Source: an uncultured Candidatus Saccharibacteria bacterium
GTDB taxonomy: Bacteria; Patescibacteriota; Minisyncoccia; Phycocordibacterales; UBA12088
Assembly: GCA_964567265.1 (NCBI GenBank)
Contig: CAZMLK010000001.1
Location: 459,723-523,722 of the forward strand
Direction: 5' to 3'
DNA length: 64,000 nt
Position 1 is the stretch's first letter, and every line of letters starts with the position of its first letter. The position numbers were made by a program, and so were the translations under genes. This document shows positions 39,198-61,907 of the stretch, piece after piece. The notes under the pieces are model-generated. The model saw only the letters and a program-made list of their open reading frames with translations. It did not search any database and was not told the DNA's origin.

Positions 39198-40376
39198 TCA
39201 GGAAGTGGCGTTGGCAGCTGACGGCCGGAAACGCCGGAAGCCAGCAATCATCGCATCGGTAGACCGGTAGGCAAGCATGCCGACCAGAAGTGCGACCAGA
39301 AACAGTACGATGCCGCCCGGATGCGCATTTGCGAAATCAATCGCGGATGCCATCCAGTTGTTCAGCTTGATGGCCGTGTACGCACCCCAATTGTCGAGGC
39401 TCGCAACGGTCGTGTTGAGGCTATTGATAGTGGCCTCCTGCGTTCCGAGCATATGGTTCAGCGAGCTGATAGTGCCATCGCGTTCGGCGGTCACTGCTTT
39501 TGCGGCAGCTAAGTCGAGCGATGCCTGCTTCATGGCTGCATTGAAGTTACGTTCCGCCTCCGCGAAACGTACCTGTGCTGCGTCGATGTCTGCTTGAGCC
39601 TGGTTCCGAGTGGCAGTAATGGTCGCGGTCGCGTTCTCCTGTACGCGTGCGACTTCGAGTCTGCTTACCTCTGCCCGCTTGGCGAGCGCGACCTGTACGG
39701 CTGCGTCGATTGCGGCCTGCGGGTCTACGAGCCGGGCATTCAGATCCCGGACTTGCCGTTCGAGTTCGCCGATCTGCACATCCTTGTTCAGGATCTGGAT
39801 CTCGAGCCCGGCTTCGCGTCCAAGGTTGGACGAGGCTGATGCGGACACGCGAGCGGGAGTGCTCGCGAGCTGTTCTTTCAGGTCTGTGATTTCTGCCCGG
39901 GCAGCGTCGAGTCTCTGCTTCAGCATGCTGTTTTCGACGACGAGCGCGGAGTTGTTGCCGGATGCGACATCCAGATTCACGCCGCCATTCGAGGCGACGA
40001 CGAAGTCCTGGAACTTCCCGCGGTCGAGTGGAAAGAGGTATACCTCGTTCGCCTTGTAACCGACGCGTGAGAACTCGGCATATTCGTCCCAGCCCATGTA
40101 CGGAAACTGTCCGTGCCAATGGGATCGCAAGCACGATTGTGCGGTCTCGCCTTGTGCCAGGAAATCCTGGCGCGCGGCAAGCTCACAGAAACGAGTAGGA
40201 TTGGTCTTCAGGTTTCCGAATTCCACCGGCACGAATGCGCGGAGGACATCTTCGGAAGGCCTCCCGGGACCGCTAAGGCCCTCGGGAGCCACTTGGAGCG
40301 CGTTCGCAGGATTCCCTGCGACGCCCGCAAGCAACAGGGCGACGAGCCCGGCGAGAAACGCCTGTGTACCCTTCAT
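39198..40376 (-). CDS. Secreted coiled-coil protein with a C-terminal TM anchor
   Basis: Signal peptide, a long Ala/Gln-rich heptad region, and a C-terminal TM helix. Confidence 0.5.
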   Translation of the reverse strand: MKGTQAFLAGLVALLLAGVAGNPANALQVAPEGLSGPGRPSEDVLRAFVPVEFGNLKTNPTRFCELAARQDFLAQGETAQSCLRSHWHGQFPYMGWDEYAEFSRVGYKANEVYLFPLDRGKFQDFVVASNGGVNLDVASGNNSALVVENSMLKQRLDAARAEITDLKEQLASTPARVSASASSNLGREAGLEIQILNKDVQIGELERQVRDLNARLVDPQAAIDAAVQVALAKRAEVSRLEVARVQENATATITATRNQAQADIDAAQVRFAEAERNFNAAMKQASLDLAAAKAVTAERDGTISSLNHMLGTQEATINSLNTTVASLDNWGAYTAIKLNNWMASAIDFANAHPGGIVLFLVALLVGMLAYRSTDAMIAGFRRFRPSAANATS

Positions 40377-42874: not shown

Positions 42875-43072
42875 TGACAGATTGAAACGTTTTATGTTGA
42901 AATGTGATTATGAAGAATGTCTTCATGAAGCGTTCACGAGGCCTGTGGGACTATGAATGCATGGTTGCACTGCCTCGCATCCAAAACCTATACTAGAAAC
43001 CTATACTAGATTCAATCGGTTTGGATCTTGTCGCTTATTAGGCTAATGGGGCAGCGCTGCTATCATATACTT

Positions 43073-43744
43073 ATGAGAATTCTACTTGTCGAAGACGAGC
43101 AGGGTCTCGCAGACGCAATGGTCCGCGGCCTCTCACAAAAGGGCTATGCCGTTGATGTCCTCGGACAGGGTGATGAGGCGTTCACGCGCATCTCGCTCCA
43201 CCACGAGGATTACGATTTGATTATCTTGGACCTGATGCTCCCCGGCATGGATGGCGCTACCATCTGCAAAGGGGTCCGCGAGAAGAACATCACGACGCCG
43301 ATACTCATCCTTACCGCGCGCGATGAGGTCGAGAACAAGGTCGAGATGCTCCTCTCAGGAGCAGACGACTATATGGTGAAGCCGTTCTCATTCGACGAGC
43401 TCACGGCGCGCATGCAAGCACTCCTCCGCCGCCCGAGCCCGATGGTGCCCGTACTGCTCAATGTCGGCGATATCGAGCTCAATAGCGCGGAGCGTACCGT
43501 CCGCATCGCCGGACAGGATGTCCCGCTCACGCTCAAGGAATTCGTGCTCCTCGAATACTTCATGCGCCACCCAAATGAGGCGATCAACCGCGAGGATTTG
43601 CTCAGCCATTTGTGGGATTTCAATTATTCCTCGTTTAGCAACGTGGTAGACGTGCATGTTAAAAACCTTCGCAAAAAACTTAGCCGGGATGGGGAGAACC
43701 TTATTGAAACGGTTCGCGGCGTGGGCTACCGACTTAAAGGCTAG
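43073..43744 (+). CDS. OmpR-family response regulator
   Basis: REC 'MRILLVEDEQGLADAM...LIILDLMLPGMDG'; winged-helix 'trans_reg_C' ending 'RGVGYRLK'. Confidence 0.85.
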   Translation: MRILLVEDEQGLADAMVRGLSQKGYAVDVLGQGDEAFTRISLHHEDYDLIILDLMLPGMDGATICKGVREKNITTPILILTARDEVENKVEMLLSGADDYMVKPFSFDELTARMQALLRRPSPMVPVLLNVGDIELNSAERTVRIAGQDVPLTLKEFVLLEYFMRHPNEAINREDLLSHLWDFNYSSFSNVVDVHVKNLRKKLSRDGENLIETVRGVGYRLKG

Positions 43745-44810
43745 ATACGGATACGATCCGTTCTTCCGGACCCAGTGCAACGTCATCCTCTTGCAGGCAA
43801 TGCTGGGCGTCGCGATGCTCCTCTTCTTCGTCCTCGCGTTCAACTACATCTACCAGGGAATGGAGACAACGCTGCTCCATGGTATTCGAAGCACGAGCGC
43901 GATCGGGAGGGAGATCATCGGCACGGCTGACAGCGTGAAGACGAAGAGCTTCTTCGTCATCTTCAGCCTGTCATTCTGCATGACGGTCGTGTTCAGCTAC
44001 TTCATCACCCGCGTCGCGCTCACTCCTGCGCGCGATGCGCTCGCATCCCAGAAGCGCTTCATCAGCGACATCGCGCACGAGCTCCGCACTCCCCTGTCGG
44101 TCATCAAGACCAACAGCGAGGTGGCGATGTTCGATGCCACGATGAGCCCCGGGATCAGGCAAGCATTCGAAAGCACCATCACTGAGCTCGACCGCACGTC
44201 CGATATCATCAACAACCTGCTCAGCTTCAGCAATTGGACCAGCCCGGAGCGCGTGACGTTCAAGAACGTCGACGTGGGGCCGATCGTCGACAGCGCGATC
44301 AGGAAGCTGCAGACGCTGGCAACCAGCAAGAATCTCTCGATCACGACCGCGAAGAAGCCCCCGCATACGGTCTGGGGCAACGAGACCGCGCTCGAGCAGA
44401 TCGTGATCAACCTCGTGAAGAACGCGATCAACTACACGCCGCCCGGCGGCAAGATCACGGTGACTGTCGAACCGGACTACCAGGGCGGCGTCCTCCTCTT
44501 GGTCTCAGACACTGGGATCGGCATCGCGCAGAAGGATCTCTTCCATATCTTCGAGCCGTTCTATCGCGCCGAGCGCTCGCGCAACCGCCAGACGGGCTCG
44601 AGCGGGCTCGGCCTCACGATAGTGAGCGAGCTCGTGAAGCTGCATCGCGGCAAGATCACCGTGAAGAGCACACCGAATCGCGGCACGACAGTGATCGTGC
44701 GCCTTCACTATAACCAGGATGCCGTGCAGGCGGCATCCGAAGATGATACTGATGATTCAGGCGATGCGGTATCCCTCGACTTCCTTCGCGCGGCAGTAAA
44801 GAGCAAATAA
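43656..44810 (+). CDS. Membrane sensor histidine kinase. Its start is uncertain, since the track ORF overlaps the regulator by 89 nt; internal starts exist at 43689 and 43800.
   Basis: Two TM helices; HisKA 'ISDIAHELRTPLSVIKT'; HATPase_c 'VSDTGIGIAQKDLFHIFEPFYRAE...GSSGLGLTIV'. Confidence 0.75.
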   Translation: MLKTFAKNLAGMGRTLLKRFAAWATDLKARYGYDPFFRTQCNVILLQAMLGVAMLLFFVLAFNYIYQGMETTLLHGIRSTSAIGREIIGTADSVKTKSFFVIFSLSFCMTVVFSYFITRVALTPARDALASQKRFISDIAHELRTPLSVIKTNSEVAMFDATMSPGIRQAFESTITELDRTSDIINNLLSFSNWTSPERVTFKNVDVGPIVDSAIRKLQTLATSKNLSITTAKKPPHTVWGNETALEQIVINLVKNAINYTPPGGKITVTVEPDYQGGVLLLVSDTGIGIAQKDLFHIFEPFYRAERSRNRQTGSSGLGLTIVSELVKLHRGKITVKSTPNRGTTVIVRLHYNQDAVQAASEDDTDDSGDAVSLDFLRAAVKSK

Positions 44811-44831: not shown

Positions 44832-45212
44832 TTAGGCGCTTTTCGTGTATTTGGCAGCAACCTTCCAAAGATTGGCGAGTTCGAAGGGTTTCGGCAAATA
44901 ATCGTCTGCTCCGGCCTCTTCGGCGAGCGCATCCGCATGCGGATGCGCTGTCAGGATGACGATCGGGATATGCGCCGTCCGCGGGTCCCCCTTCAGCGTC
45001 TGCGCCACCTCCCGTCCGTCGGCCCCGAGGAGGGAGATATCCAGAAAAATAAGATGAGGTGCTTCGGCCTCGACGACATCCGCCCCGAGGAAGGTGTCCG
45101 AAGTGACGACGGCATAGTCCTTCATCTCGAGCGCCTGCTGCATCACGAAGAGGATGCCGGCGCTGTCATCGATGATCATTATTTTCTTCTTTGCTGTTTC
45201 TCGACTTTCCAT
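44832..45212 (-). CDS. Stand-alone CheY-like response regulator receiver
   Basis: 'KKIMIIDDSAGILFVM...LIFLDISLLGADG...KPF'. Confidence 0.8.
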   Translation of the reverse strand: MESRETAKKKIMIIDDSAGILFVMQQALEMKDYAVVTSDTFLGADVVEAEAPHLIFLDISLLGADGREVAQTLKGDPRTAHIPIVILTAHPHADALAEEAGADDYLPKPFELANLWKVAAKYTKSA

Positions 45213-45217
45213 CGTGC

Positions 45218-46567
45218 TTAGTGTTTCGTTTTCGTGCGCGCGCCGATTCGCGTACTTCGTTTTCGTAATCGCGCTCGTGGCGGTCTTTGTATTGACGGAA
45301 CCTTCACTGCCGGGAGGGTCAGGAGGAAGGTCGAGCCCTTTCCTTTGCGACTCTTCACGTTTATGTGGCCCTTATGCTGCTCTGCGATCGCCATCGAGAT
45401 ATAAAGGCCGATGCCAAGTCCTGAGAAATTCTGCCCCTCCTTGCTGGTGACCTGGAAGAAGCGCTTGAAGATCTTGTCGCGATGCTGCTTCTCGATCCCG
45501 ATGCCGAAATCCTGGACGCTCACCGTCGCGGTGCGCGTAGTGCGCGCCAACGTCACAATCACCTTGTTCGCATTCGGCGAATACTTGATTGCATTGACGA
45601 TGAGATTGATGAGCACGCGCCCGATTGAGGTCCGGTCCCCCTTGATCTTCGCATGGGTCCGCCCCTTAAAGATAATCGCATGCTGCGGCGAGAGCAACCT
45701 GCAGTTCCGGATGATCTCTTCGACCAACGGGTCGAGTGCGAACACTTTCTTCGGCAATTCGAACTTCCCCGCCTTGATCTTCGAGACATCAAGGAGATCG
45801 GTGACGAGCTTCGTGAGCTGGTCGATCTGCCCATCCATCCGGATGAGGTAATCCACGAGCATGTTATCGTCGCTTTCCTCGAAGCGCTTCTGGAGGATCT
45901 GCACCAGCGTCTTCAGCGTGGTCACCGGCGTCTTCAGCTCATGACTGGCCATCGACATGAACACGTCGGTACGCTGCTGGAAGAATTTCCGCTCGCTGAT
46001 ATCCTCCATGGCGAGCACCGTGAGCGCATCAGCTTTCGGGAGTCCATGGACCCTGAGCGCGGAAAAGAGCAGGCATCGGTGCCCGAGTCCCGGAATCACG
46101 CACTCGAATTCGAGCGTGTTCAGAGCGGGCTTCCCCGCACGGGTAGTGTCTAGGAATTCCTCGAGCGTCGGCAGATCCCACGCGTCATCCTGAAGCCCGA
46201 ATACGGACATGCCCCTGACCTGGTCCCGGCTCATGCGGAAAAGCTCGCAGAAAGAGCGGCTCGCATCCTGGATATTTTTATCAGCATCCAGAATCAAAAG
46301 CGGCTCCCGTATCGCGTCCAAGATCCCTTGAACGAATGCGTGAGCCTCTTTCTCCTTCCGTCGTGCTGCTTCTATGTCGTTGCCCAAGAATCCAGAGATG
46401 GGAGACTGCCTGAATCCGAGACCAACCGCCGTGGGGGATGCCTGGGGCGGTCCCGCTACGTTTTTCAGGCGCAGCCGGGGCCTGCCTCCCGCACGGTGCG
46501 AGGACTTTTTTGTACGGGGAGTGGGCGGAGATGTGGTTGTAGGCCTTTTTTTCAGCATACCTATCAT
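45218..46567 (-). CDS. PAS-domain sensor histidine kinase
   Basis: PAS 'ILDAIREPLLILDADKNIQDASRSFCELFRMSRDQVRG'; HisKA 'MASHELKTPVTTL'; HATPase_c 'VQDFGIGIEKQHRDKIFKRFFQV...GLGIGLYI'. Confidence 0.75.
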   Translation of the reverse strand: MIGMLKKRPTTTSPPTPRTKKSSHRAGGRPRLRLKNVAGPPQASPTAVGLGFRQSPISGFLGNDIEAARRKEKEAHAFVQGILDAIREPLLILDADKNIQDASRSFCELFRMSRDQVRGMSVFGLQDDAWDLPTLEEFLDTTRAGKPALNTLEFECVIPGLGHRCLLFSALRVHGLPKADALTVLAMEDISERKFFQQRTDVFMSMASHELKTPVTTLKTLVQILQKRFEESDDNMLVDYLIRMDGQIDQLTKLVTDLLDVSKIKAGKFELPKKVFALDPLVEEIIRNCRLLSPQHAIIFKGRTHAKIKGDRTSIGRVLINLIVNAIKYSPNANKVIVTLARTTRTATVSVQDFGIGIEKQHRDKIFKRFFQVTSKEGQNFSGLGIGLYISMAIAEQHKGHINVKSRKGKGSTFLLTLPAVKVPSIQRPPRARLRKRSTRIGARTKTKH

Positions 46568-46890
46568 TGGCCAGGCAGCAACCGAAACGTGTCCCCGATC
46601 GGACGCCCATAATTCTACCACTCATTCCATGGGCCCTTAATGAAGGTTTTGCACATGCGTATTGCATGAATAATATTCGTATTTTCGATTCACCTTCCCT
46701 TCACTGCCGCCTTGGTACTGTTTCATGTAGGCGCGGCCTTTCACGCACGCCCTGCGACTGATTTCATCCGCAGGAAGCGGCTGCCGCGCGCACCAGTACG
46801 CCACTTGTTACCAGCAGTTCATTCTCCATTCGCATGATCGAACCCACTTCATGGGCGCCGCGTGCGGACGAACCATGTATGAAGATGTGA

Positions 46891-46930
46891 GCCGGAGAGG
46901 CCGACGACGACTGGTCTCGGCCTCTCCGGC
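46891..46930. other. Perfect 14-bp inverted repeat (12-nt loop) in a ~465-bp gene-poor region upstream of the polysaccharide operon
   Basis: GCCGGAGAGGCCGA-cgacgactggtc-TCGGCCTCTCCGGC, with no flanking U-tract. Confidence 0.35.
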
Positions 46931-47086
46931 GCGCACTATGAGAATAGGATGAGCAAAAAAGTGTGAACTTCATTTCATATTGAAACGAAGCACACTCCGT
47001 TTCGTCATCACTGCAGGTGCCCTTCCACGCAAATGAAAGATACGCGTGATCGCGAAGAGTGTTTTGTAAGACTAATCGACACTCCC

Positions 47087-48448
47087 ATGCAACACGACAT
47101 CCTCGAACGACAGGCACACACGACCGTGCGCCTCCCGCTCGCAAAGCGCGCCGAAACCGACCAGAAGCAGATCGTCACCGTGATCGGACTCGGTTACGTC
47201 GGACTCCCCTTGGCGCTCATGGCTGAGACGGAAGGCTACCGCGTATTCGGAATCGATACTGACATCGAAAAAGTCGAGGCATTGAAACGCAAATCAGCAC
47301 CCCATCTCTCAGAACAAGAAAAGAAGCTATTCCAGAAAAGCAAATTCCATATTCGCACGGACGGCAGTCCGCTCGCCGATTCTGACATCGTACTCGTGTG
47401 CGTCCCGACGCCAGTCTATGCGGATCATGCGCCGAATCTCGAGCCCTTGATCGGCGCAACTGAGCTCGTCGCCGCAAACCTTAGCGAGGGACAGCTCGTC
47501 ATCATCGAATCGACCGTGAACCCGGGCGTCTGTGAGGAAGTCCTCATACCTATCCTTGAACGCGTCTCAGGGCTTGCAGCCGGGAAGGATTTCTTCTTCG
47601 CGCACTGCCCGGAGCGCATCAACCCCGGTGATGACCGCTGGACGCTCGCGACCATCAACCGCGTGATCGGCGCTAATGACGCGACCAGCCTCGCGCGTGC
47701 GAGCATATTCTACGAATCCATATTGGATGCGGATGTCTATCCGATGCAATCCCTCAAGGAAGCGGAGGCAGTGAAGATCGTCGAGAACTCATTCCGCGAC
47801 ATCAATATCGCGTTCGTGAACGAGCTCGCGATGTCCTTCGACAAGCTCGGCATCGACGTCACCAACGTCATCAAGGGCGCCTCCACGAAGCCGTTCTCGT
47901 TCATGGCGCACTTTCCCGGATGCGGCGTCGGCGGCCATTGCATTCCGGTGGATCCGTATTACCTGATCTCGTACGCAGCTGAGAATGGCTTCACGCATCG
48001 ATTCCTGTCGGCAGCACGGGAGATCAACAACGGCATGCCGCACTATACCGTCAATCTGATGGCCGGCATCCTCGCCGACGCATACACCGAATCGAAAGCA
48101 TCCCTCGACGGCAAGCAGATCGCCCTCCTCGGACTCTCCTACAAGCGTGATGTGCCGGATCTCCGCGAAAGCCCCGCGCTCGAGATCAAGGAGGAATTGG
48201 AGCGCCAAGGAGCGACCGTCCGCGTGTTCGATCCCTTCCTCCCGACCCAGTCGACCGCGAAAACGCTCGAGGAGGCCATTACCGGAGCTGACGGCATCAT
48301 ACTCGCGACCGACCACTCCGCATTCACGGCACTCACCCCGGCGCTGTGCCGCAAGGCGGGAGTCTCCGCGATCGTCGACGGCCGCAACTTCCTGCCGAAG
48401 GATCGCTTCGTCGCGGCAGGAATCAGCTATAAAGGAATCGGGCGATGA
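47087..48448 (+). CDS. Nucleotide-sugar 6-dehydrogenase (UDP-glucose / UDP-GlcNAc / UDP-ManNAc dehydrogenase family)
   Basis: N-terminal Rossmann 'VIGLGYVGLPLAL', catalytic 'GGHCIPVDP', and a C-terminal UDP-binding domain. Confidence 0.85.
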   Translation: MQHDILERQAHTTVRLPLAKRAETDQKQIVTVIGLGYVGLPLALMAETEGYRVFGIDTDIEKVEALKRKSAPHLSEQEKKLFQKSKFHIRTDGSPLADSDIVLVCVPTPVYADHAPNLEPLIGATELVAANLSEGQLVIIESTVNPGVCEEVLIPILERVSGLAAGKDFFFAHCPERINPGDDRWTLATINRVIGANDATSLARASIFYESILDADVYPMQSLKEAEAVKIVENSFRDINIAFVNELAMSFDKLGIDVTNVIKGASTKPFSFMAHFPGCGVGGHCIPVDPYYLISYAAENGFTHRFLSAAREINNGMPHYTVNLMAGILADAYTESKASLDGKQIALLGLSYKRDVPDLRESPALEIKEELERQGATVRVFDPFLPTQSTAKTLEEAITGADGIILATDHSAFTALTPALCRKAGVSAIVDGRNFLPKDRFVAAGISYKGIGR

Positions 48449-49758
48449 AAAAAAGAAAACTCACAACCTGGAAGCGGTCACTCCGTATCCTCCAGTATCT
48501 CGGACGGAAGACGTATGACGCGGGATTGTGGTTCATATTCTTCTTCATCATCTACATCGTCCTCCTCGTGAAGGTCGCGACCGGATTCTCCGTCCATACC
48601 GATCTCTTCTTCGGATTCTATTCCCTCGCGATCACCCTCTACATCTTCTCGCGCTTCTTCCTGTCGTACTTCCATCGCTCGTTCGAGTACGATCTCGAGT
48701 ACACGCCGACGGTCTCATTCGTGGTGCCCGCGAAGAACGAAGGCGACAATATCGCCCAGACGCTGGAGCGCTTCGCTGAAGTGGACTACCCGCTCGACAA
48801 GATCGAAGTCATCGCCATCAACGACGGTTCTGATGACAACACGCTCGAGGCCATGCAAAAGGCCGCGGCCGCGCTCCGCGACGTGATCGGTCGCGTCGAG
48901 GTCGTGGACTGGAAAGTGAACCGCGGCAAGCGCCAGGGCATGGCCGAAGGCGTGATGCGCTCGAGAGCCGACATCATCATCTTCGTCGACAGCGACAGCT
49001 TCATCGCGCCCGATTGCGTGCGCCATCTCGTGAAGTACTTCGTCAATCCGAAGGTGGGCGCGGTCTCCGGCCACACCGACGTCTATAACCGCGACACCAA
49101 CCTCCTCACCCAGATGCAGGCCGTCCGCTACTACATCGCGTTCAAAGTCTACAAGGCGGCAGAATCCGTGTTCGGGAACGTCACCTGCTGCCCGGGCTGC
49201 TGCTCCGCGTACCGGAGGGAGTATCTCGTCGAATTCCTCGACGCGTGGCTCCACCAAACCTTCCTCGGGAAGGAATGCACCTTCGGCGACGACCGCAGCC
49301 TCACCAATTACATGATCCGCAAGTACGAGGCCGTGTACTCGCCGGAAGCGAAGGCAGAGACCGTCGTGCCGGACAACTTCGGCAAGTACATGCGCCAGCA
49401 GCAGCGATGGAAGAAGTCATGGGTGCGCGAGACATTCATCGCCTCGTCGTTCATCTGGCGCAAGAACCCGATCGCCGCACTCTTCTTCTACATCTACGTG
49501 TTCCTCGCATTCGCCTCCCCAGTGGTCTTCTTCCGCGCGCTCATCTGGTATCCGTACATCCATCACCAGTGGCCGATCGTGTACCTCATGGGCCTCTTCC
49601 TCATGCTCGTCCTCCATGGGCTCTACTACCGCATCAAGGTCGGGCCGCGCGCATGGTTCCTCGCCATTATCAGCTTCTGGTTCAACACGGTGATCCTCAT
49701 GTGGCAGCTGCCCTGGGCAGTGGTCACCATCGCGGACACCCGCTGGGGCACGCGATGA
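48445..49758 (+). CDS. Processive family-2 glycosyltransferase, class-I hyaluronan synthase / NodC-like
   Basis: 'IAINDGSDDNT', 'IIFVDSDSFIAPDC', 'CCPGCCSAYRREYL', 'GDDRSLTNYMI' and 'QQQRWKKSWVRE' (QxxRW), plus multiple TM helices. The ATGA overlaps the dehydrogenase stop. Confidence 0.8.
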   Translation: MKKRKLTTWKRSLRILQYLGRKTYDAGLWFIFFFIIYIVLLVKVATGFSVHTDLFFGFYSLAITLYIFSRFFLSYFHRSFEYDLEYTPTVSFVVPAKNEGDNIAQTLERFAEVDYPLDKIEVIAINDGSDDNTLEAMQKAAAALRDVIGRVEVVDWKVNRGKRQGMAEGVMRSRADIIIFVDSDSFIAPDCVRHLVKYFVNPKVGAVSGHTDVYNRDTNLLTQMQAVRYYIAFKVYKAAESVFGNVTCCPGCCSAYRREYLVEFLDAWLHQTFLGKECTFGDDRSLTNYMIRKYEAVYSPEAKAETVVPDNFGKYMRQQQRWKKSWVRETFIASSFIWRKNPIAALFFYIYVFLAFASPVVFFRALIWYPYIHHQWPIVYLMGLFLMLVLHGLYYRIKVGPRAWFLAIISFWFNTVILMWQLPWAVVTIADTRWGTR

Positions 49759-49783
49759 TCGGACGCGCTAACACGAAACCCGT

Positions 49784-51448
49784 ATGTATTTCGACTTCTC
49801 AACAGAAAAAGTCTCACGGCTCCTGGCGGTCATCGGCATCATGTTCGTGTCCGTGTACGCGATCGTCTCAGCCTATCCGAACTTCAGCGTCACCTACATC
49901 AACGACTGGACCGGCAGCTACGCGAACCGCTCCAAGGCGACGCTCGCCTACTGGTGGTCATACAAGCTCCCGACCGAAGGAAATGCCTACGGCGTGAATC
50001 CGGTCCAAGCGATCGCGAGCCCGCTCGGCTCGTTCTTCGCCGGAATCCGCGAGCGCCTCGGAGGTGCGCCCGTGCACGATTCGACGGCATACGCCGCAGC
50101 TGCGAACGGCGCGGGCGTCGCGCGCTCGATTCCCGTGCTCCTCTACCATGGAGAAAGCGCCGAAAGCCAGAACATACCCCTGGAGCGATTCGTGACGCAG
50201 ATGCGCGCAATCAAGGAGGCAGGGTGGCACACCATCACGATGGAGCAGTTCTACGCCTTCGTGAAGAGCGGCACGCCGCTTCCTGACAAATCCTTCCTCC
50301 TTACCTTCGATGATGGCCGCAAGGACAGCTACTATCCGACCGACCCAGTGCTCCAGGATCTCGGGTTCAACGCCGTCATGTTCGTGGTGACCGGCTATTC
50401 GATGCCGTCAGATACGAGCAAGAAATCGACATTCTATCTCTCGAAGACCGAGCTCCATGAGATGCAGAATACCGGCCGTTGGGAGCTTGAGTCGCACGGG
50501 AAGGAAGACCACGTGTTCTACTACGTCGACGGGAAAGGGACCGAAGGCCACTTCCTCAGCAACAAGCTCTGGCTTCCCGACACAAAGACGCTGGAGAGCG
50601 AGGCTGTATTCAAGCAGCGGATCACGAGCGATCTCGCGGCAGCGAAATCCTCACTCGAGAAGGAATTCGGAAAGCCGGTCATCGCGTTCGCCTATCCCTT
50701 CAGCGACTACGGCCAGGATTCCATCAATTTCAAGGGCTCGAAGCCGATCGTGAACGACGTCGTCGGCTCGCTCTACCAGCTCGCGTTCTACCAGGCGACC
50801 TTCGCGGATGGCGACAGCTTCAACTACCCCGCATCCAAAAACTACATGGTGAAGCGCATCGAGCCGCGCTCGAACTGGGACGGTGCCGCGGTCGTCGCTG
50901 CGCTCGAGAGCGGCCGCGCCAAGGAGCTTCCTTACACCAGCGAATCCTTCGGCCAGGAGTGGCTCCAGACCTGGGGCACCGTGACGAAGAACGGGGGCAT
51001 GCTCTCGCTCGCTGCGAATCCAGACACGACCGGCGCAGCGACCTTCCTCAATGGTTCCGGCTGGTGGAAGAATTACAGCCTGTCCATCACCGTCGCGCGC
51101 CGCACCGGAAGCGACATCATGCTCATGGCACGCCACCAAGATAGCAATAACTACGTCCTCTGCGCGTTCTCCGGCAGCCGTGTCGCACTCCGCGAGAACC
51201 TGGGCGGCGTCCCTCGCATCCTTGGATCGGAGAAGCACACCTTCGCCACGAAGACCGGCAGCGCGGTGCTCGGCATGAACGTCACCGATGACAGCGCGGA
51301 ATGCCTCGTCGACGGAAAGGTGGTGACGCATGGAGAGATGATCAGCCCTGCGCTCCGCCAAGGCGGCGTCGGCGTCCAGGTATGGGATGAGAGGAAGGAC
51401 ACTGCGAGCGCGCGGATCGAGAGCATCTCCATCCTTCCACTCGAATGA
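49784..51448 (+). CDS. Membrane-anchored polysaccharide deacetylase (CE4) with a C-terminal jelly-roll-like domain
   Basis: 'FLLTFDDGRKDSYY' carries the CE4 DD motif, then a His motif; the C-terminal ~170 aa look beta-rich and lectin-like. Confidence 0.8.
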   Translation: MYFDFSTEKVSRLLAVIGIMFVSVYAIVSAYPNFSVTYINDWTGSYANRSKATLAYWWSYKLPTEGNAYGVNPVQAIASPLGSFFAGIRERLGGAPVHDSTAYAAAANGAGVARSIPVLLYHGESAESQNIPLERFVTQMRAIKEAGWHTITMEQFYAFVKSGTPLPDKSFLLTFDDGRKDSYYPTDPVLQDLGFNAVMFVVTGYSMPSDTSKKSTFYLSKTELHEMQNTGRWELESHGKEDHVFYYVDGKGTEGHFLSNKLWLPDTKTLESEAVFKQRITSDLAAAKSSLEKEFGKPVIAFAYPFSDYGQDSINFKGSKPIVNDVVGSLYQLAFYQATFADGDSFNYPASKNYMVKRIEPRSNWDGAAVVAALESGRAKELPYTSESFGQEWLQTWGTVTKNGGMLSLAANPDTTGAATFLNGSGWWKNYSLSITVARRTGSDIMLMARHQDSNNYVLCAFSGSRVALRENLGGVPRILGSEKHTFATKTGSAVLGMNVTDDSAECLVDGKVVTHGEMISPALRQGGVGVQVWDERKDTASARIESISILPLE

Positions 51449-52356
51449 TGGCGCGCGCACGAAACATGAACCCGTTCGTTCGGAAAAACCTGCTCAGGCT
51501 CTTCATTGCGATCAGCATCCTTGAAGCGATCATCATCCTCTGGAGGGATATCCCCCTCACCCGCGTGCTACCCGATGATCGGAATACGTCATCGCATGTC
51601 GAAGCCGCAGAGCTCCACGCGCCCACAACATTCAACTTCGATGGAACGCGAGCAGTCACGGAAGCCGGTGAGATGGAGGAGAGTGGCGATTCCTACTGGT
51701 GGCTGAACTCCGGAGCATTCCTGTACATCGATAACGGAGCAGCACGGACCGTCTCCGGCGAGCTGCCCTTCCTCTCGTACTGGCGCATCCTCTACGCGAA
51801 GACCAGCGGCGTCGACACCGATCGCGGCTACCATCCGCAGAATCTCTTCCGCCTCGTGAGTCGCAGCGACTGGGAGGACGTCAGCATGACCGCGTACTTC
51901 CGCATCGACCGGGACAATCTGAGCGCGAGCCCGAATCGGAATGCGTCGAACGGCCTTCTTCTCATGACGCGCTACCATGACGGCGACAACCTCTACTATG
52001 CAGGCATCCGCGTCGACGGGAATGCGATCATCAAGAAGAAGATCGGCGGCACGTATTTCACCCTCGCGGAAAAGAAGATCTTCGCAGGCACCTATGACCA
52101 CGATAAGAATCCGAGCCTCTTGCCGATCCATGAGTGGGTGGGGCTCCGGAGCATCACAAAAAATAACCCCGACGGGACCGTGACCGTCACCCTCCTCATG
52201 GACCTCAAAAGCACGGGCGAATGGAAGGAAATCGCGAGCGCAGTAGACAGTGGGAAGGAACTCGGCGGAGCGCCGCACCTTGCTGCCGGCCATATAGGCA
52301 TCCGCACCGACTTCATGGACGTGAGTTTCCGCGAAGTGAGTGTCGCTGCGCCCTAG
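51445..52356 (+). CDS. Secreted predicted beta-jelly-roll protein, paralog B of the gene at 10113-10970
   Basis: It shares long identical blocks with the 10113 gene, and its ATGA overlaps the CE4 stop. Confidence 0.7.
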   Translation: MMARARNMNPFVRKNLLRLFIAISILEAIIILWRDIPLTRVLPDDRNTSSHVEAAELHAPTTFNFDGTRAVTEAGEMEESGDSYWWLNSGAFLYIDNGAARTVSGELPFLSYWRILYAKTSGVDTDRGYHPQNLFRLVSRSDWEDVSMTAYFRIDRDNLSASPNRNASNGLLLMTRYHDGDNLYYAGIRVDGNAIIKKKIGGTYFTLAEKKIFAGTYDHDKNPSLLPIHEWVGLRSITKNNPDGTVTVTLLMDLKSTGEWKEIASAVDSGKELGGAPHLAAGHIGIRTDFMDVSFREVSVAAP

Positions 52357-52429
52357 ATGATTCCTTCTTCATGAAATGCTCATCGCCATTCCTGATATAC
52401 TGGCGGCATTATTCATTCATGCACTCACT

Positions 52430-52807
52430 ATGATTGATCATGTATCTTTCTCCGTCGCCGATTTCTCCAGGAGCAAGGCATTCTATGCTGCCGCGCTTGC
52501 TCCTCTCGGGTACAAGCTCCTCAGCGAATTCACCGAATGGTCCGTTGCCGGCTTCGGCGCGGGCGGCAAATCGGATATGTGGATCAAGCAAGGTGATGCT
52601 GCTCAGCCTTCACATCTTGCCTTCAATGCAGCAACCAAAGACGAAGTGGACAAGTTCTATGCTGCAGGACTGAATGCAGGCGGCAAGGACAATGGCGCCC
52701 CGGGGTACCGCAAGGATTATTCGCCTGGCTATTATGCAGCCTTCTTGACCGATCCCGACGGACACAATATCGAGGCGGTATTCCACGACCCGAACCCGAT
52801 TTCCTAA
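52430..52807 (+). CDS. VOC/glyoxalase-family protein
   Basis: 'MIDHVSFSVADFSRSKAFYAAALAPLGY' and 'DPDGHNIEAVFH'. Confidence 0.6.
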   Translation: MIDHVSFSVADFSRSKAFYAAALAPLGYKLLSEFTEWSVAGFGAGGKSDMWIKQGDAAQPSHLAFNAATKDEVDKFYAAGLNAGGKDNGAPGYRKDYSPGYYAAFLTDPDGHNIEAVFHDPNPIS

Positions 52808-52875
52808 GCATCGATCACGCACAATCCCAGAACGGGAGACCACGCTCAACTGGGTGGTACTATGAATACACTTCC

Positions 52876-53448
52876 ATGGAGACCACGTTGGCACTTCTTG
52901 AGACCTATAAGTACGTGGTGCTTCTTCCGCTTGCGATAGTCGAGGGACCGATCATCACCATCCTTGCAGGCTTCCTGGTCTCGCTCGGGCATATGAATCC
53001 GTACATCGTATACCCCATCGTGGTCGTCGGAGACGTCATCGGGGATTCATGCCATTACGCGCTCGGGCGATGGGGCGGAAAATCGCTTTTACGGAAAATA
53101 GGTCCGTGGCTCGGCGTGACTGACGATTCACTGAAAGCAGCGAGGGAATATTTCGGCAATCACCACTATCGCGCGCTGACCTTTTCGAAGATCATCCACG
53201 GCATCGGCTTCACAGGCCTCATCACAGCGGGAACGCTCGGCATGCCCTTCGGACGATTCCTCACAACCTGCGCCGCGGTCGCCATCGTACAGTCTGCCGT
53301 ATACCTCCTCATAGGAATCTTCTGCGGCCATGCATACGCTCTCCTTGGGACGGCCCTCGATTATTTCAGCGCCGCGGCCATCATCGGCGCCGCACTGGTC
53401 GCACTCTTTCTTGTCCTGAGGCGATACGGGCTCGGCAAACGCATATGA
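52876..53448 (+). CDS. DedA-family (VTT/SNARE-associated) membrane protein
   Basis: 'LPLAIVEGPIITILAGFL' and 'GRWGGKSLL' are DedA blocks. Confidence 0.75.
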   Translation: METTLALLETYKYVVLLPLAIVEGPIITILAGFLVSLGHMNPYIVYPIVVVGDVIGDSCHYALGRWGGKSLLRKIGPWLGVTDDSLKAAREYFGNHHYRALTFSKIIHGIGFTGLITAGTLGMPFGRFLTTCAAVAIVQSAVYLLIGIFCGHAYALLGTALDYFSAAAIIGAALVALFLVLRRYGLGKRI

Positions 53449-54614
53449 AAATCTTGATCGCTGCTGACACATATCATCCGCATATTAATGGCGCGTCCTA
53501 TTTCGGGCAGCGGCTGGCTGCTGGCCTCAAGGAGCGCGGCCACGAGATCGCAGTACTCTCCCCTGCTGAATCGTTCAACAATGATTCCAGGGTGGACGAG
53601 CACGGCATTCAGCGTTTTGGCGTACGCTCCATCTCGCTCATGTTCCACCACGCGTTCCGCTTCACGCTTCCCGCGCCATTCATCAAGAGCCGAGTCCGTG
53701 AAGTCATCGTGAGCTGGCAGCCCGACCTCATCCATTCGCAAGGCCATTTCTCGATCGGCCGCTCCGCGATTGCCGTTGCCAAGGAACGCGGCATCAAAGT
53801 GGTGGCCACGAACCACTTCATGCCTGAGAACCTGACGCCCTATCTCCATCTTCCGGAACGGATGAATCACCGCATCAAAGAAATCATGTGGCGGGATTTC
53901 GTCAGCGTATTCAAGCATGCCGCGCGCGTGACGACGCCGACCGAGACCGCAGCGAAGCTCATCCGCGGACGCCTGCCGCAGTCGATCGATGTCATTTCCT
54001 GCGGCGTCGATCTCACGCGGTTCACGCCAGAAAACAGGTCGGGTTCCATCCGAGCGCGCTATCATCTCCCTGAAAACGTGCGTCTCCTCCTTTTTGTCGG
54101 CCGCCTCGACCCCGAGAAGAATGTGGACCTGCTCATGCATGCCGCGAAGATTGCGACCGCGAAGGCAGACTTCCATGTGGTGATCGCGGGCGCGGGCGTC
54201 GAGGAGCGGCGTCTTTCCGATCTCGTGAAGGAATTGGGCCTCGAATCGAAGGTAACGCTCACGGGATTCGTCGCGAACGAAGACCTGCCGGCCTTGTATG
54301 CATCTGCGGACGGCTTCCTGCTCGCCTGCGCGGCCGAGCTCCAGAGCATCGCTACGCTTGAAGCCATGGCGTCGGGGCTTCCCGTCATCGTGGTGAATGC
54401 GCTCGCGCTTCCCGAGCTCGGCCGCGAAGGCGAGAATGGATTCCTCTTCAAGGACCTTGATGCCGCTGACTGCGCGGAAAAGATGGCCGCGCTCTTTTCA
54501 GATGAACCAAGACGGAAGGCGATGGGCGTACGAAGCCGTGAAATCGCGGAGACACATGATATTCGAAAGACTATTTCCGCGTTCGAGTCGCTCTACACGG
54601 AGACGCTCGGTTGA
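53445..54614 (+). CDS. Family-4 (GT-B) glycosyltransferase
   Basis: 'MKILIAADTYHPHINGASYF' and the EX7E-type 'ATLEAMASGLPVIVVN'. The ATGA overlaps the DedA stop. Confidence 0.8.
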   Translation: MKILIAADTYHPHINGASYFGQRLAAGLKERGHEIAVLSPAESFNNDSRVDEHGIQRFGVRSISLMFHHAFRFTLPAPFIKSRVREVIVSWQPDLIHSQGHFSIGRSAIAVAKERGIKVVATNHFMPENLTPYLHLPERMNHRIKEIMWRDFVSVFKHAARVTTPTETAAKLIRGRLPQSIDVISCGVDLTRFTPENRSGSIRARYHLPENVRLLLFVGRLDPEKNVDLLMHAAKIATAKADFHVVIAGAGVEERRLSDLVKELGLESKVTLTGFVANEDLPALYASADGFLLACAAELQSIATLEAMASGLPVIVVNALALPELGREGENGFLFKDLDAADCAEKMAALFSDEPRRKAMGVRSREIAETHDIRKTISAFESLYTETLG

Positions 54615-54624
54615 GTTTCGTCCG

Positions 54625-55296
54625 CTACCAATCGATGGGTGACTGGCCGTGCTCCTCGAGATACGCATTCGCCTTGCTGAAATGTTTGTTGCCGAAGAAT
54701 CCGCTGTACGCAGAAAACGGCGACGGGTGCGCCGACGTCAGCACCAGATGTTTTTCAAAATCGATCACGCCTCCCTTCTCTTTCGCATAATTGCCCCAGA
54801 GCATGAATACCAGGTGCTCGCGTTCTTCTGAAAGCGATTTGATCGCGGCGTCGGTAAACGCTTCCCATCCCTTCTTCTGATGCGATCCCGGGGTCTTCGC
54901 CGCGACGGTCAGGGTGGCGTTAAGAAGCAGCACTCCCTGCGTTGCCCATCGTGACAAATCAGCGCCGCCAGCAGTCGGCCGGCCGAGATCGCTCTCGATT
55001 TCCTTGAAGATATTCTGGAGGGAGGGGGGGACGGGTACGCCCTCATGGACCGCGAAACAGAGGCCGTTCGCCTGCCCCGGTCCGTGGTAGGGATCCTGGC
55101 CGAGGATGACGACCTTCACCTGATCGAAGGGGCAGAGATCGAACGCGCGGAAGATGTCTTTCGGTGGCGGATATACTTTCCTCGCTTGGTATTCCCTTTT
55201 GACGAATTCAGTGAGCTCTCCGAAATACGGCTTCTCGAATTCGGGGGCAAGCCGCGCTTTCCATGACTCTTCGAGCTTCACGTTCATAGTGGACAT
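54625..55296 (-). CDS. ung: Uracil-DNA glycosylase, family 1
   Basis: 'KVVILGQDPYHGPGQANGLCFAV', 'GVLLLN' and 'HPSPFSA' are Ung catalytic motifs. Confidence 0.85.
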   Translation of the reverse strand: MSTMNVKLEESWKARLAPEFEKPYFGELTEFVKREYQARKVYPPPKDIFRAFDLCPFDQVKVVILGQDPYHGPGQANGLCFAVHEGVPVPPSLQNIFKEIESDLGRPTAGGADLSRWATQGVLLLNATLTVAAKTPGSHQKKGWEAFTDAAIKSLSEEREHLVFMLWGNYAKEKGGVIDFEKHLVLTSAHPSPFSAYSGFFGNKHFSKANAYLEEHGQSPIDW

Positions 55297-57691: not shown

Positions 57692-58309
57692 CTAGCGCGC
57701 GGCCGTTTCTGAAACTGGCTTTTCTGTGACTCCCTTTTTCCTGAAATGCAAGAGCGCAGGAAGAAATGAGACGAGAATGATTCCGAGGATGATCGGATAT
57801 AAATATTCTTCCGCATTCGGCACCTGCTGGCCGAGCACGAAGCCCATGGTCACGATACCCGCGACCCAAGCGATTCCTCCGAGGATGTTATAGAAGATGA
57901 AATCGCGGTATGGCATCGCGGCGGCGCCCGCGACGATCGGCACGAACGTGCGGACGATCGGAAGGAATCGCGCGAGGAAGATCGCCTTCCGGCCATGGAG
58001 GACGAAAAATGTATGCGACTCGACGAGATACTTCGGTTTGAAGAAGCGGGACTCCTTCCGCGCGAAGAGTTTTGGGCCGAGGTAGCGCCCGAACGAATAG
58101 CCGACGCTGTCGCCGAGAATCGCGGCGACGATGAGGAGCGGGATCAGGATCGCGATGTTGAGAATCCCCTGGGAAGCAAGGAACCCGGCGGTGAACAGGA
58201 GGCTGTCGCCCGGAAGGAAGAATCCGAAGAACAGGCCGGACTCCGCGAAGACGATGCCGAAGAGTCCGGCATATCCCGCGGTCGTGATGATCATCTGGAG
58301 ATCAAACAT
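57692..58309 (-). CDS. DedA-family membrane protein (second copy)
   Basis: 'GLFGIVFAESGLFFGFFLPGDSLLFTAGFLA' and 'GRYLGPKLF'. Confidence 0.75.
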   Translation of the reverse strand: MFDLQMIITTAGYAGLFGIVFAESGLFFGFFLPGDSLLFTAGFLASQGILNIAILIPLLIVAAILGDSVGYSFGRYLGPKLFARKESRFFKPKYLVESHTFFVLHGRKAIFLARFLPIVRTFVPIVAGAAAMPYRDFIFYNILGGIAWVAGIVTMGFVLGQQVPNAEEYLYPIILGIILVSFLPALLHFRKKGVTEKPVSETAAR

Positions 58310-58421
58310 GGCTAGAGTGTAGCATGAAAAAGCCCCCTGATTTTCCTACGGAAAATCAGGGGGAAAAGAAAAGACCGCCAGCAAGCTGGCGGTCTGATGG
58401 TGCGCCGAAGCGCTGTCTCGC

Positions 58422-58709
58422 CTAGAAGGCGCATCCGGAGAACACTCTTCCGGTACTGATCGTCACAACTTGGTCAGAAGTGACTTCTTCGCCAGTTTCG
58501 GGCAGAAACCATGTCCGCCATTTGCCGGCGACCGGCTCAATGAAGAATGAGTCCTCGCCCTTACCGCGAATTATCGCTTCGGGTCTACGATTCTGGTGCC
58601 TGTGCTGATAGACAAGCTTCCGATGGTGGAAGAAGGCCCAGAGTCCTGTTGCTTTCAGGAAAATGAAAGCAACGAGCAGGGCCAGAACCATGTAGAGAAT
58701 ACCAGACAT
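58422..58709 (-). CDS. Small membrane protein downstream of the GT2 gene
   Basis: ATG at MSGILYMVLALLVAFIFL, followed by a TM helix. Confidence 0.35.
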   Translation of the reverse strand: MSGILYMVLALLVAFIFLKATGLWAFFHHRKLVYQHRHQNRRPEAIIRGKGEDSFFIEPVAGKWRTWFLPETGEEVTSDQVVTISTGRVFSGCAF

Positions 58710-58778
58710 TTTGCCCAGCCCTCCTTGGCTGCATTGACGTTTGGTCTGCCACATATAGTGGCATTTTTTACAACAATG

Positions 58779-60113
58779 TCAAGCACTTGCTGGGCAGTCT
58801 TCATGGACTATCCATACACTGTCGTCTGGCGTATTCGTCGCATCACCTCCGGAGCGTGCTCCTCCCCAGGTGCTTATCTTGTGCTGGGTCAAGAGCGCGT
58901 ATACTCGGATGAATTGAGCGTACGTGACAACGAGGACGAAGACCGGAAGAATCCACCAACTCCTCGGATATTTCCAGAGATGCGGGAACTGGCGGATGAT
59001 CATCGTCAGGAGCATGCCGATAATGGCCATGGCAAAGCTCTGCAAGAACGGGAGCGTCGACGTTCCATATATGAACGTGAGCGGCCAATGCACGGCGACG
59101 ATGTACACCGTCGCGAGTGAAATGAAGATATCCGACCAGCATATGAAAAATGCTAGCGGAAACTTGATCAGCCAAGGCGATCGGATCGTGTATCCTTGGC
59201 TCGACCTCCCCCACCTAGTCCACATGCGCTGTGTGGCGCCAAATGTTTCGGGAGCACTCGTTGTAACGAGTGCATCTGGAACAAGAATCGAACGTTTCCC
59301 GGCCTGGAGAACAAAGCTCGTGATCACGCGATCGTCGCCCGCAATACAAGGGCGTCGCATGAATCCGAAGTAGCTGAACGAGTCGTTCACGAGTTCATCC
59401 ATCCGACCCTCAATGAGGTCTGTTCTGACTGCGGTCATCCTACCAGGCGCACAGGGCACCTGACGCACAAGGCTAGCTGCAGCCAGCGAAGAATTAAGGC
59501 GCGCATCCTCTTGCCAGAAACAAATTTTCTGGATCCACCGTTTCGCATTGTGGATGAGCTGCGCAGTAGTCACAATACCGACTCGCGGGTCACAGAAAGG
59601 GGCAAGGAGTCGAAGCACCACATCGCTTGTTGTCGGAACAGTATCCGAGTCATGCAAGATGGTGATCTCGTACAACCTGCCTCGACGTCTTGCTTCTCGA
59701 AGCATCGCGCGCAGATTCTTGCGCTTGTTGCGCGCACTCGTCATCAAAACGACATGGGCATACTTTCTTGCGATTTCTGCCTGTTGCTCTGCCCAGACCT
59801 GGTCTTTCTTATACCCATCGACGATTGCGATGAAAAAAAACTCGATCGTCCCTGATTCCAGGGACTCTCTCGTCTTTCGCATCGCAAGCTCCAGGGTCTC
59901 AAGGTTCTCCTCGTAAATCGTGAGGAGGGTCGTCGCTCTATGCTTCTGCAAGGGATAATTCTGAATCCATCCCCCGTTTCGGAGGAAGTAGAACACTCCA
60001 GCAAGAACCATTCGTGGGAGCATGCAAGCCCACACGAACATGACATAGATCTCGAAGACGAACCACTGGCCCGTCGCCCACGTCTCCTGTAGGAGACTGA
60101 TTAAGTGGAGCAC
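58779..60113 (-). CDS. Second processive family-2 glycosyltransferase (QxxRW)
   Basis: 'ILHDSDTVP', 'CAPGRMTAVRTDLI', 'AGDDRVITSFVL' and 'QRMWTRWGRSS', with TM helices at both ends. Confidence 0.75.
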   Translation of the reverse strand: MLHLISLLQETWATGQWFVFEIYVMFVWACMLPRMVLAGVFYFLRNGGWIQNYPLQKHRATTLLTIYEENLETLELAMRKTRESLESGTIEFFFIAIVDGYKKDQVWAEQQAEIARKYAHVVLMTSARNKRKNLRAMLREARRRGRLYEITILHDSDTVPTTSDVVLRLLAPFCDPRVGIVTTAQLIHNAKRWIQKICFWQEDARLNSSLAAASLVRQVPCAPGRMTAVRTDLIEGRMDELVNDSFSYFGFMRRPCIAGDDRVITSFVLQAGKRSILVPDALVTTSAPETFGATQRMWTRWGRSSQGYTIRSPWLIKFPLAFFICWSDIFISLATVYIVAVHWPLTFIYGTSTLPFLQSFAMAIIGMLLTMIIRQFPHLWKYPRSWWILPVFVLVVTYAQFIRVYALLTQHKISTWGGARSGGDATNTPDDSVWIVHEDCPASA

Positions 60114-60184
60114 GCGTACCTATCTCCTTTCGAGTGACAGGTTTGGCAGGCCGGAGGATTCCGGCCTGCCGTTTCGATCCGAGC

Positions 60185-61693: not shown

Positions 61694-61768
61694 GATACTC
61701 CTTTCGTGGCTCAGTTGAGCCATTCGAGAGTCCTAAAGCTCCGGGATCGAAGCTTTTTTGCCTTATGG

Positions 61769-61797
61769 AATATCCCTTAAATAATTGATTTTGTCAA
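61769..61797 (-). promoter_or_regulatory. Sigma70-type promoter TTGACA-N17-GATATT for GH26 paralog 1
   Basis: Minus-strand TTGACA at 61797-61792 and GATATT at 61774-61769. The motif is duplicated upstream of paralog 2. Confidence 0.45.
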
Positions 61798-61907
61798 TAT
61801 ATGCGGAGGATCTATTCCGTGTCCAAATCTGAGAACCCAGGCCGCTGTATAAAAGAAAAGACGGACCGCATGCGGTCCGTCGAAGCATCAATCAGGACTG
61901 TAGGTAT

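Follow-up and report, generated by a model that had tools for sequence, protein, structure and literature searches.

The 64,000-nucleotide window analysed here is a stretch of contig CAZMLK010000001.1 (positions 459,723 to 523,722) from an uncultured Candidatus Saccharibacteria bacterium, and it carries four consecutive plus-strand genes (47087–52356) that encode a nucleotide-sugar 6-dehydrogenase, a GT2 synthase, a CE4 deacetylase and a jelly-roll protein. These genes very probably specify a synthase-dependent polysaccharide system based on N-acetylglucosamine (GlcNAc), in which the polymer would be deacetylated outside the cell. That the dehydrogenase product is built into the chain, so as to give an acidic, chitin-like heteropolymer, is a reading that we favour with modest confidence. 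On this reading the product would not be hyaluronan but a chitin-like polymer, probably acidic and deacetylated in part. The four genes are as follows, with hyaluronan synthase abbreviated as HAS, carbohydrate-binding module as CBM and AlphaFold2 as AF2.

47087–48448, plus strand: nucleotide-sugar 6-dehydrogenase, cytoplasmic, NAD-dependent, of the UDP-N-acetylhexosamine class (Pfam, TIGR03026).
48445–49758, plus strand: GT2 synthase/translocase of 437 residues, membrane-embedded and processive, of the HAS/NodC superfamily (Glycos_transf_2 and Chitin_synth_2).
49784–51448, plus strand: CE4 polysaccharide de-N-acetylase of 554 residues with an N-terminal membrane anchor, resembling the N-terminal domains of PgaB/IcaB, and with a C-terminal CBM66/DUF1080-like beta-sandwich (Polysacc_deac_1).
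51445–52356, plus strand: signal-anchored jelly-roll protein of 303 residues (AF2 model), from an unannotated family of Patescibacteria.

A preliminary description of this DNA had drawn attention to the locus, and its coordinates, ATGA overlaps at 48445 and 51445, quoted motif strings and family assignments all held up in the open reading frame (ORF) check, in Pfam searches and in alignments; every ORF was recovered where it had been placed. The ATGA start/stop overlaps join the dehydrogenase to the GT2 gene (48445) and the CE4 gene to the jelly-roll gene (51445), and 25 nucleotides separate the GT2 and CE4 genes. The public gene call for the dehydrogenase has 453 residues and therefore starts at 47087. 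The overlap at 51445 hinges on the choice of start codon, because the public annotation begins the jelly-roll gene at 51466 (P0121, 296 residues).

Comparisons of sequence, profile and predicted fold support the earlier reading of the GT2 protein as a HasA/NodC-type processive synthase, neither a cellulose synthase nor a poly-N-acetylglucosamine (PNAG) synthase. Pfam identifies Glycos_transf_2 and, over residues 169–329 only, Chitin_synth_2 (PF03142: 94 bits, cutoff 27). The closest solved structures by sequence are the Chlorella-virus HAS (CvHAS, E 2.7e-32) and Xenopus XlHAS1 (E about 1e-32 for the pair), and a profile of the GT2 family scores HAS entries of the PDB at 127–148 bits, versus 37 for the cellulose synthase BcsA and 32–36 for chitin synthases (CHS). 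The AF2 model (pLDDT 77) predicts two long N-terminal helices, with C-terminal helices following the glycosyltransferase domain (helices 312–427). Its top 13 Foldseek matches are all HAS (E 4e-22 to 7e-17), and cellulose and chitin synthases come after them. A tblastn search of annotated plasmids ranked a Paenibacillus GT2 first (275 bits, 39% identity), followed by the HasA of pXO1 (166 bits), NodC (140) and PgaC (90); the HasA alignment has 33% identity over 83% of the query, takes in the membrane region and stops only at the last residue. In none of the profile, Foldseek and tblastn searches did the GT2 protein cluster with cellulose or PNAG synthases, the outcome named beforehand as speaking against this assignment.

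The motifs of the protein tell the same family story at the level of single residues. The strings GDDRSLTNYMI and QQQRWKKSWVRE are both present and align with CvHAS and XlHAS1. The motifs comprise DSD, TCCPGCC, FGDDRSLTN, QQQRWKKSW.RE and a C-terminal WGTR, of which DSD, FGDDRSLTN, QQQRW and WGTR are invariant among 25 family members and align with CvHAS, XlHAS1 and HasA. Exactly as in pXO1 HasA, the stop codon comes immediately after WGTR. A different picture emerges at the acceptor-side switch loop, where TCCPGCC is invariant in the family and HAS has C(V/I/S)(G/S)GPL.

The close kinship with HAS and NodC does not amount to membership of either, as the preliminary description might have suggested. 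The NodC equivalog TIGR04242 is the best NCBIfam model for the protein, yet its score of 185 bits fails the cutoff of 550; the PgaC equivalog TIGR03937 also fails (130 bits, cutoff 422), and over the aligned core the protein shares 20% of its residues with E. coli PgaC. In neighbour-joining trees with PgaC as outgroup, the Parcubacteria sequences form a clade of their own with the Paenibacillus GT2 (80%), outside NodC, bacterial HasA and the eukaryotic and viral HAS, so that the GT2 protein nests inside neither HAS nor NodC. The Streptococcus pyogenes HasA in these trees, a sequence entered by hand, is sister to the database-derived pXO1 HasA (100%) and bears on no conclusion. On these sequence grounds, we place the GT2 protein in a lineage of its own within the HAS/NodC superfamily. 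The family numbers 631 clusters at 50% identity (E<=1e-30), and JGI pipelines attach the label ‘hyaluronan synthase’ to relatives, including ten distant ones; this label and ‘chitin synthase’ are each probably inaccurate in their details. The nearest relatives belong to Candidatus Kaiserbacteria and other Parcubacteria, across which GT2 identity is 66–79%; this kinship places the window in a bacterium of the Candidate Phyla Radiation (CPR), by our reading one of the Kaiserbacteria. From GTDB genomes and JGI metagenomes we gathered 93 related Parcubacteria loci and mapped the window proteins onto each.

The dehydrogenase carries the N-terminal, central and C-terminal UDPG_MGDP_dh domains of Pfam, scores 394 bits against TIGR03026 (cutoff 190) and contains the catalytic cysteine motif GGHC. 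The preliminary description had likened it to HasB, recalling the streptococcal hasB/hasA pair, and had predicted a polymer of glucuronic acid (GlcA) and GlcNAc of the hyaluronan or heparosan type. This part is not supported. The best PDB matches (4r16, Cap5O, 3g79 and CalS8, 201–246 bits) are UDP-N-acetylmannosamine (UDP-ManNAc) dehydrogenases, a putative enzyme forming N-acetylgalactosaminuronic acid (GalNAcA), and CalS8, whereas UDP-glucose dehydrogenases reach at most 125 bits. Likewise, the protein scores 205 bits against E. coli WecC versus 110 against pXO1 HasB. By sequence, its class is that of UDP-N-acetylhexosamine dehydrogenases, not the UDP-glucose or HasB-like one.

Within this class, a neighbour-joining tree groups the Parcubacteria enzymes with TviB-labelled UDP-GlcNAc 6-dehydrogenases and with giant-virus UDP-GlcNAc 6-dehydrogenases (UNGDs) encoded beside HAS-like GT2s (72% in both cases), apart from the UDP-ManNAc clade of WecC, Cap5O and 4r16 (98%). 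Neither the window nor the 93 Parcubacteria loci yielded a UDP-GlcNAc 2-epimerase (WecB). Because of the TviB grouping and the lack of a 2-epimerase, we infer UDP-GlcNAc to be the most economical substrate, with UDP-N-acetylglucosaminuronic acid as the product (abbreviated UDP-GlcNAcA); the enzyme is most likely a UDP-GlcNAc 6-dehydrogenase of the UNGD/TviB/WbpA kind. The preliminary description had counted a UDP-ManNAc or GDP-mannose enzyme unrelated to the polymer as evidence against its reading. Half of this came about, in that the enzyme lies outside the UDP-glucose class; its conserved linkage to the synthase speaks against a lack of any tie with the polymer.

The CE4 protein matches Polysacc_deac_1 (PF01522) with 48.9 bits (cutoff 23.1) and has one transmembrane segment (residues 9–34). 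Among 59 sequences, at least 90% keep its TFDDG and SH-x4-H motifs, so that by sequence the Asp-His-His metal triad and the catalytic Asp of CE4 enzymes are conserved. Against the PgaB equivalog it reaches 95 bits, well under the cutoff of 322. A profile of its C-terminal domain matches the CBM66 structure 4azz (E 3e-4), and PF06439 (DUF1080) is matched in 5 of 15 members.

The jelly-roll protein, by comparison, matches neither Pfam nor NCBIfam; its 1440 homologues are all annotated ‘hypothetical’ and come from Patescibacteria. The AF2 model (pLDDT 92.6) predicts an N-terminal transmembrane helix (residues 3–27) followed by a beta-sandwich jelly roll. The model and the transmembrane prediction thus point to a membrane-anchored protein in place of the secreted one first proposed. 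Foldseek ranks the CBM66 structure 4b1m first (E 2.4e-8, TM-score 0.75), then DUF1080 hydratases, GH16, and lyases of PL14, PL20 and PL28, while the family profile gave no significant match to PDB sequences. All members of the family share 34 invariant residues, six of them Arg or Lys and four of them Tyr, a pattern that would fit either an anionic-glycan groove or a lyase-type active site. We therefore regard the protein, on the strength of the model, as a candidate polymer-binding or polymer-trimming (lyase or hydrolase) subunit. Both the jelly-roll protein (by Foldseek) and the CE4 C-terminal domain (by profile) resemble the CBM66/DUF1080 (PF06439) modules; the jelly-roll family differs in having no detectable Pfam membership, and the number of charged residues that are invariant in it hints at something beyond a generic CBM. 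A common origin of the jelly-roll family and the CE4 C-terminal domain was considered and is not supported, as hhalign gave a local match only, at 29% probability.

The order of these genes is conserved well beyond this window, here counted over loci with enough flanking DNA for each neighbour. A CE4 gene follows the GT2 gene in 63 of 65 loci, a jelly-roll gene follows the CE4 gene in 48 of 54, and a dehydrogenase gene lies immediately upstream of the GT2 gene in 42 of 60 (70%). This bears out the linkage of dehydrogenase and synthase, and the succession of deacetylase and jelly-roll protein behind them, as first described. For the two-component system, only loci with at least 4 kb of upstream sequence were counted (n=40). 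Orthologues of an OmpR-type regulator (55–74% identity) flank the operon in about 20 of these, either just upstream of the dehydrogenase or GT2 gene or just downstream of the operon, and histidine kinase orthologues (38–51% identity) adjoin the regulator in the same loci. In several loci lacking the dehydrogenase, regulator and kinase directly precede the GT2 gene. The conserved unit is therefore (response regulator–histidine kinase)–(dehydrogenase)–GT2–CE4–jelly roll. This arrangement goes far beyond chance, recurring in dozens of independent Parcubacteria contigs.

Taken together, these data suggest the following scheme. In the cytoplasm, the dehydrogenase would oxidise a UDP-N-acetylhexosamine, a class assigned at the family level, most likely converting UDP-GlcNAc into its uronic acid. 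The membrane-embedded GT2 protein would polymerise a beta-linked, GlcNAc-based chain from UDP-GlcNAc and thread it through its own channel; it probably takes the uronic acid as a second substrate, analogous to the way HAS alternates two UDP-sugars. Outside the membrane, the anchored CE4 enzyme would strip part of the N-acetyl groups, and the anchored jelly-roll protein, going by its modelled fold, would bind the polymer and possibly cleave it. Conserved synteny suggests that the OmpR-type two-component system controls expression of the whole. A more detailed version of this scheme is one that we put forward tentatively, as an attractive idea that may well prove wrong. It holds that the product is a polymer not described before, in which GlcNAc and N-acetylglucosaminuronic acid form a beta-glycan, either alternating in the manner of HAS or mixed, and that partial de-N-acetylation turns it into a zwitterionic ‘acidic chitosan’. 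This polymer would be a conserved component of the Parcubacteria envelope, perhaps for host attachment, its chemistry would be the same as that of the UNGD–CHS8–CDA clusters of chloroviruses and fungi, and the jelly-roll family would provide a dedicated lyase or binding subunit.

Several points weigh against a uronic acid in the chain or loosen the assignments on which it depends. The dehydrogenase gene is missing from the upstream position in 18 of 60 loci, and no diagnostic GT2 residues separate loci with the dehydrogenase from those without it, the only differences being conservative (V/I, M/I, E/K); the synthase therefore may not need a uronic acid. In CvHAS, the GlcA carboxylate is contacted by Lys177 and Arg341 (PMC12987647). 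The equivalents of these two residues were tried as a discriminator for GlcA use and rejected, as they are conserved in NodC too. The dehydrogenase falls below the cutoffs of both the TviB model (235 bits, cutoff 592) and the WecC model (233 bits, cutoff 459), and its TviB grouping is a neighbour-joining result at 72% bootstrap with references that carry labels from the Prokaryotic Genome Annotation Pipeline (PGAP) and are not experimentally characterised. The deep nodes of the neighbour-joining GT2 tree drop to 15–45% once taxa are added. For the jelly-roll protein, binding and catalysis both stand as candidate roles, and all of the substrates named for the system are inferred.

These points bear most directly on the leading alternative, a plain chitin- or chitosan-like homopolymer, which we consider rather unlikely but the most serious of those weighed. 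Here the GT2 protein would make beta-1,4-GlcNAc only, the CE4 enzyme would convert part of it to glucosamine (GlcN), and the dehydrogenase would serve an unrelated glycoconjugate as a mere frequent neighbour. Such an enzyme pair would explain why the CE4 gene is nearly always there while the dehydrogenase gene is not, and why the GT2 sequence carries no trace of the difference; moreover, CCPGCC is nearer to the CCGPC of NodC than to the SGPL of HAS, and the Chitin_synth_2 match is well above its cutoff. Among annotated, cultured organisms, the one with the nearest relative adds to this case. That relative is the GT2 WP_152403772 (39%, 275 bits) of a Paenibacillus cellulositrophicus plasmid (L014, NZ_CP045296.1, 4541–12171), whose gene is flanked directly by CE4 genes, two in all, and has a GH18 gene nearby but no dehydrogenase. 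The two CE4 genes and the GH18 gene point to a GlcNAc backbone, and so count for the preferred reading too. This GT2 differs from that of the window in its length of 625 residues, an N-terminal extension of about 190 residues and an SGPL motif, and its locus lacks a jelly-roll gene as well. We found no report characterising the Paenibacillus chitin/chitosan-like locus. Against a homopolymer, the stop codon of the dehydrogenase gene overlaps the start of the GT2 gene, and the dehydrogenase keeps its place immediately upstream in 70% of loci in genomes of less than 1 Mb. HAS-like GT2s also have dehydrogenases of the same class as neighbours in giant viruses, in fungi and on the hot-spring contigs (PMC4059230), and the six invariant basic residues of the jelly-roll protein fit a polyanion. 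We accordingly keep to the acidic heteropolymer as the preferred reading.

A short chito-oligosaccharide signal resembling the Nod factor, with a NodC-like synthase to build it and a NodB-like deacetylase to trim it, is very improbable. The rhizobial NodC/NodB pair does share with the window a GT2 of the same superfamily adjoining a CE4 gene, an adjacency that mirrors nodB–nodC, together with a similar Cys-rich CC-G-C motif, and NodC is the best-scoring NCBIfam model. However, the window GT2 is 30% identical to NodC and far under its cutoff, it ends in the HAS-type WGTR and not in the WLSR of NodC, and the CE4 protein has a membrane anchor and a CBM-like domain, as would suit a polymer outside the cytoplasm. 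No NodA-like gene occurs in the conserved module.

Even less credit can be given to a genuine hyaluronan (GlcA–GlcNAc) capsule operon, the equivalent of hasB–hasA, despite the extent of its likeness to the class I HasA systems of Streptococcus and of Bacillus pXO1 (hasACB). These have a GT2 of about 420–440 residues with DxD, GDDR-LTN, QQxRW-KS--RE and the C-terminal WGTR-stop, the same predicted membrane architecture, and a nucleotide-sugar 6-dehydrogenase in the same operon; the nearest solved structures are HAS, HasA is the nearest named bacterial protein, and automated labels of relatives read ‘hyaluronan synthase’. In contrast, the window GT2 is 33–36% identical to HasA and falls in a separate clade, outside both HAS clades, with CCPGCC at the switch loop where HAS has CSGPL. 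Its partner dehydrogenase is of the UDP-N-acetylhexosamine class, neither hasC nor galU occurs within the module, and the CE4 and jelly-roll genes are obligatory; the CE4 gene is the invariant partner here, and none is present in the pXO1 hasA–galU–dehydrogenase stretch examined. The hasB/hasA analogy thus fails because of the class of the dehydrogenase, the obligatory deacetylase and the phylogeny. Of the polymers first proposed, the chitin-like and then N-deacetylated one is still viable, and the hyaluronan or heparosan branch is not supported. The least probable candidate of all is a PNAG (beta-1,6-GlcNAc) biofilm polymer in the style of pgaBC/icaAB: the CE4 protein is most similar to the N-terminal domains of PgaB and IcaB and has a His-x4-His spacing that we take to be that of the PgaB/IcaB group, but the GT2 protein is only 20–25% identical to PgaC, matches it far more weakly than HasA (90 versus 166 bits) and stays well below the cutoff of the PgaC model.

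A closer precedent than hasB/hasA is the cluster of UNGD, HAS-like chitin synthase (CV/ESV class, CHS8) and polysaccharide deacetylase known from chloroviruses, phaeoviruses and ascomycetes (PMC4059230, PMC5122149, PMC7053769). The same three enzyme classes stand side by side in the window (47087–51448), and the CPR dehydrogenases group with giant-virus UNGDs that flank HAS-like GT2s; we found the UNGD–GT2 pairing again in the giant-virus contigs L108 and L113. In a tree that represents this cluster by viral sequences, however, the UNGD-linked GT2s of these two contigs side with CvHAS (97%) and not with the CPR clade. The bacterial trio is therefore an independent or ancient parallel. The CPR system also differs in being bacterial and operonic, and it adds the jelly-roll protein and the two-component system. 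The trio of UNGD, chs8 and cda1 in chloroviruses and fungi was noted in 2014, and the literature searched yielded no characterisation of its product. A further dehydrogenase–synthase pairing occurs in hot springs, where a relative with a 36%-identical GT2 has a WecC-like dehydrogenase gene upstream. On the hot-spring contigs L100 (6867–9334) and L101 (5563–8030), a truncated WecC-like dehydrogenase (272 residues, lacking the C-terminal domain), a GT2 and a short NTP_transferase fragment follow one another in a hasB–hasA–hasC-like order; this locus may be decaying.

Around the four genes, the window contains the following further features.

43028–43744, plus strand: response regulator of the OmpR/PhoB type (Response_reg and Trans_reg_C, Pfam).
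43656–44810, plus strand: membrane sensor histidine kinase paired with the OmpR-type regulator (HisKA and HATPase_c; two hydrophobic segments).
44832–46621, minus strand: receiver-only protein and PAS-HisKA kinase, an antisense pair (Pfam).
52376–54614, plus strand: VOC/glyoxalase-fold protein, DedA (VTT) and GT4 (Pfam).
10113–10970 (plus strand) and 11024–12850 (minus strand): second accessory pair, a jelly-roll paralogue and a CE4 gene, convergent (tblastn and Pfam).

In most relatives the two-component system directly abuts the operon, unlike in this window, where the antisense kinase/receiver pair (44832–46621) sits between it and the dehydrogenase gene. At the other end, DedA and GT4 had been counted as part of the locus, and an ATGA overlap at 53445 does join these two genes. 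Homologues of VOC, DedA and GT4 were, however, found beside GT2 in none of the 93 loci; because they never accompany it there, these three are local additions outside the conserved module. They are possibly co-transcribed with the module in this window. No terminator-like sites were found on the plus strand from 46455 to 54984, which is weak evidence for a single transcription unit across this interval. The best models for DedA and GT4 (52876–54614) are UptA, an undecaprenyl-phosphate transporter, and a GlcNAc-phosphatidylglycerol synthase, both far below cutoff, and the two genes may form a glycolipid module that has nothing to do with the conserved operon.

The second accessory pair reinforces the functional tie between the jelly-roll family and deacetylases. 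Its jelly-roll paralogue, recovered by tblastn of the window, has 285 residues and is 54% identical to the 303-residue protein. The CE4 protein convergent with it has 608 residues and contains CBM_4_9 and Polysacc_deac_1. Just upstream of this pair lies a PAS histidine kinase gene (8160–9251) whose product is 40% identical to the kinase at 45218–46621.

A second HAS/NodC-like GT2 is encoded on the minus strand (58779–60113), with GDDR, a degenerate QxxRW (RMWTRW) and TWGGAR. It lies downstream of genes for three paralogous proteins with weak GH26 matches (60185–61723, 61908–63086 and 63194–64000+, minus strand) and upstream of a second DedA gene (57692–58309, minus strand). The minus-strand interval 57692–64000 may be a separate synthase-dependent glycan locus. 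Elsewhere in the window, a low-GC stretch at about 24000–38441 (40–49% versus 54–60% elsewhere) ends at a tRNA-Asn gene (38369–38441). It carries a large serine recombinase (36813–38408), a heavy-metal P-type ATPase, a CDF transporter, an HMA-DsbD_2 protein and a DUF4365 protein of 933 residues, and from its sequence it looks like an integrated mobile island. Two minus-strand proteins (20989–21789 and 39198–40376) gave one weak TIR_2 match below the Pfam cutoff and one Csm1_N-like match.

Our literature search found no relevant report linking CPR, Patescibacteria or Kaiserbacteria to a chitin or hyaluronan synthase. The genomes of these organisms are tiny, and experiments have defined next to nothing of their surface chemistry. 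Against this background, a four-gene module that often comes with its own two-component system, and whose synthase is about 70% identical over many lineages, suggests an important envelope polymer. An unannotated family of proteins, about 1,400 in number, also gains a likely context from this work. The module presents the trio of dehydrogenase, HAS-like synthase and deacetylase in a bacterial operon that is easy to express, and it offers a tractable route to the chemistry of the polymer. If the synthase does use UDP-GlcNAcA, this would extend the substrate range of the HAS fold and define a new biopolymer.

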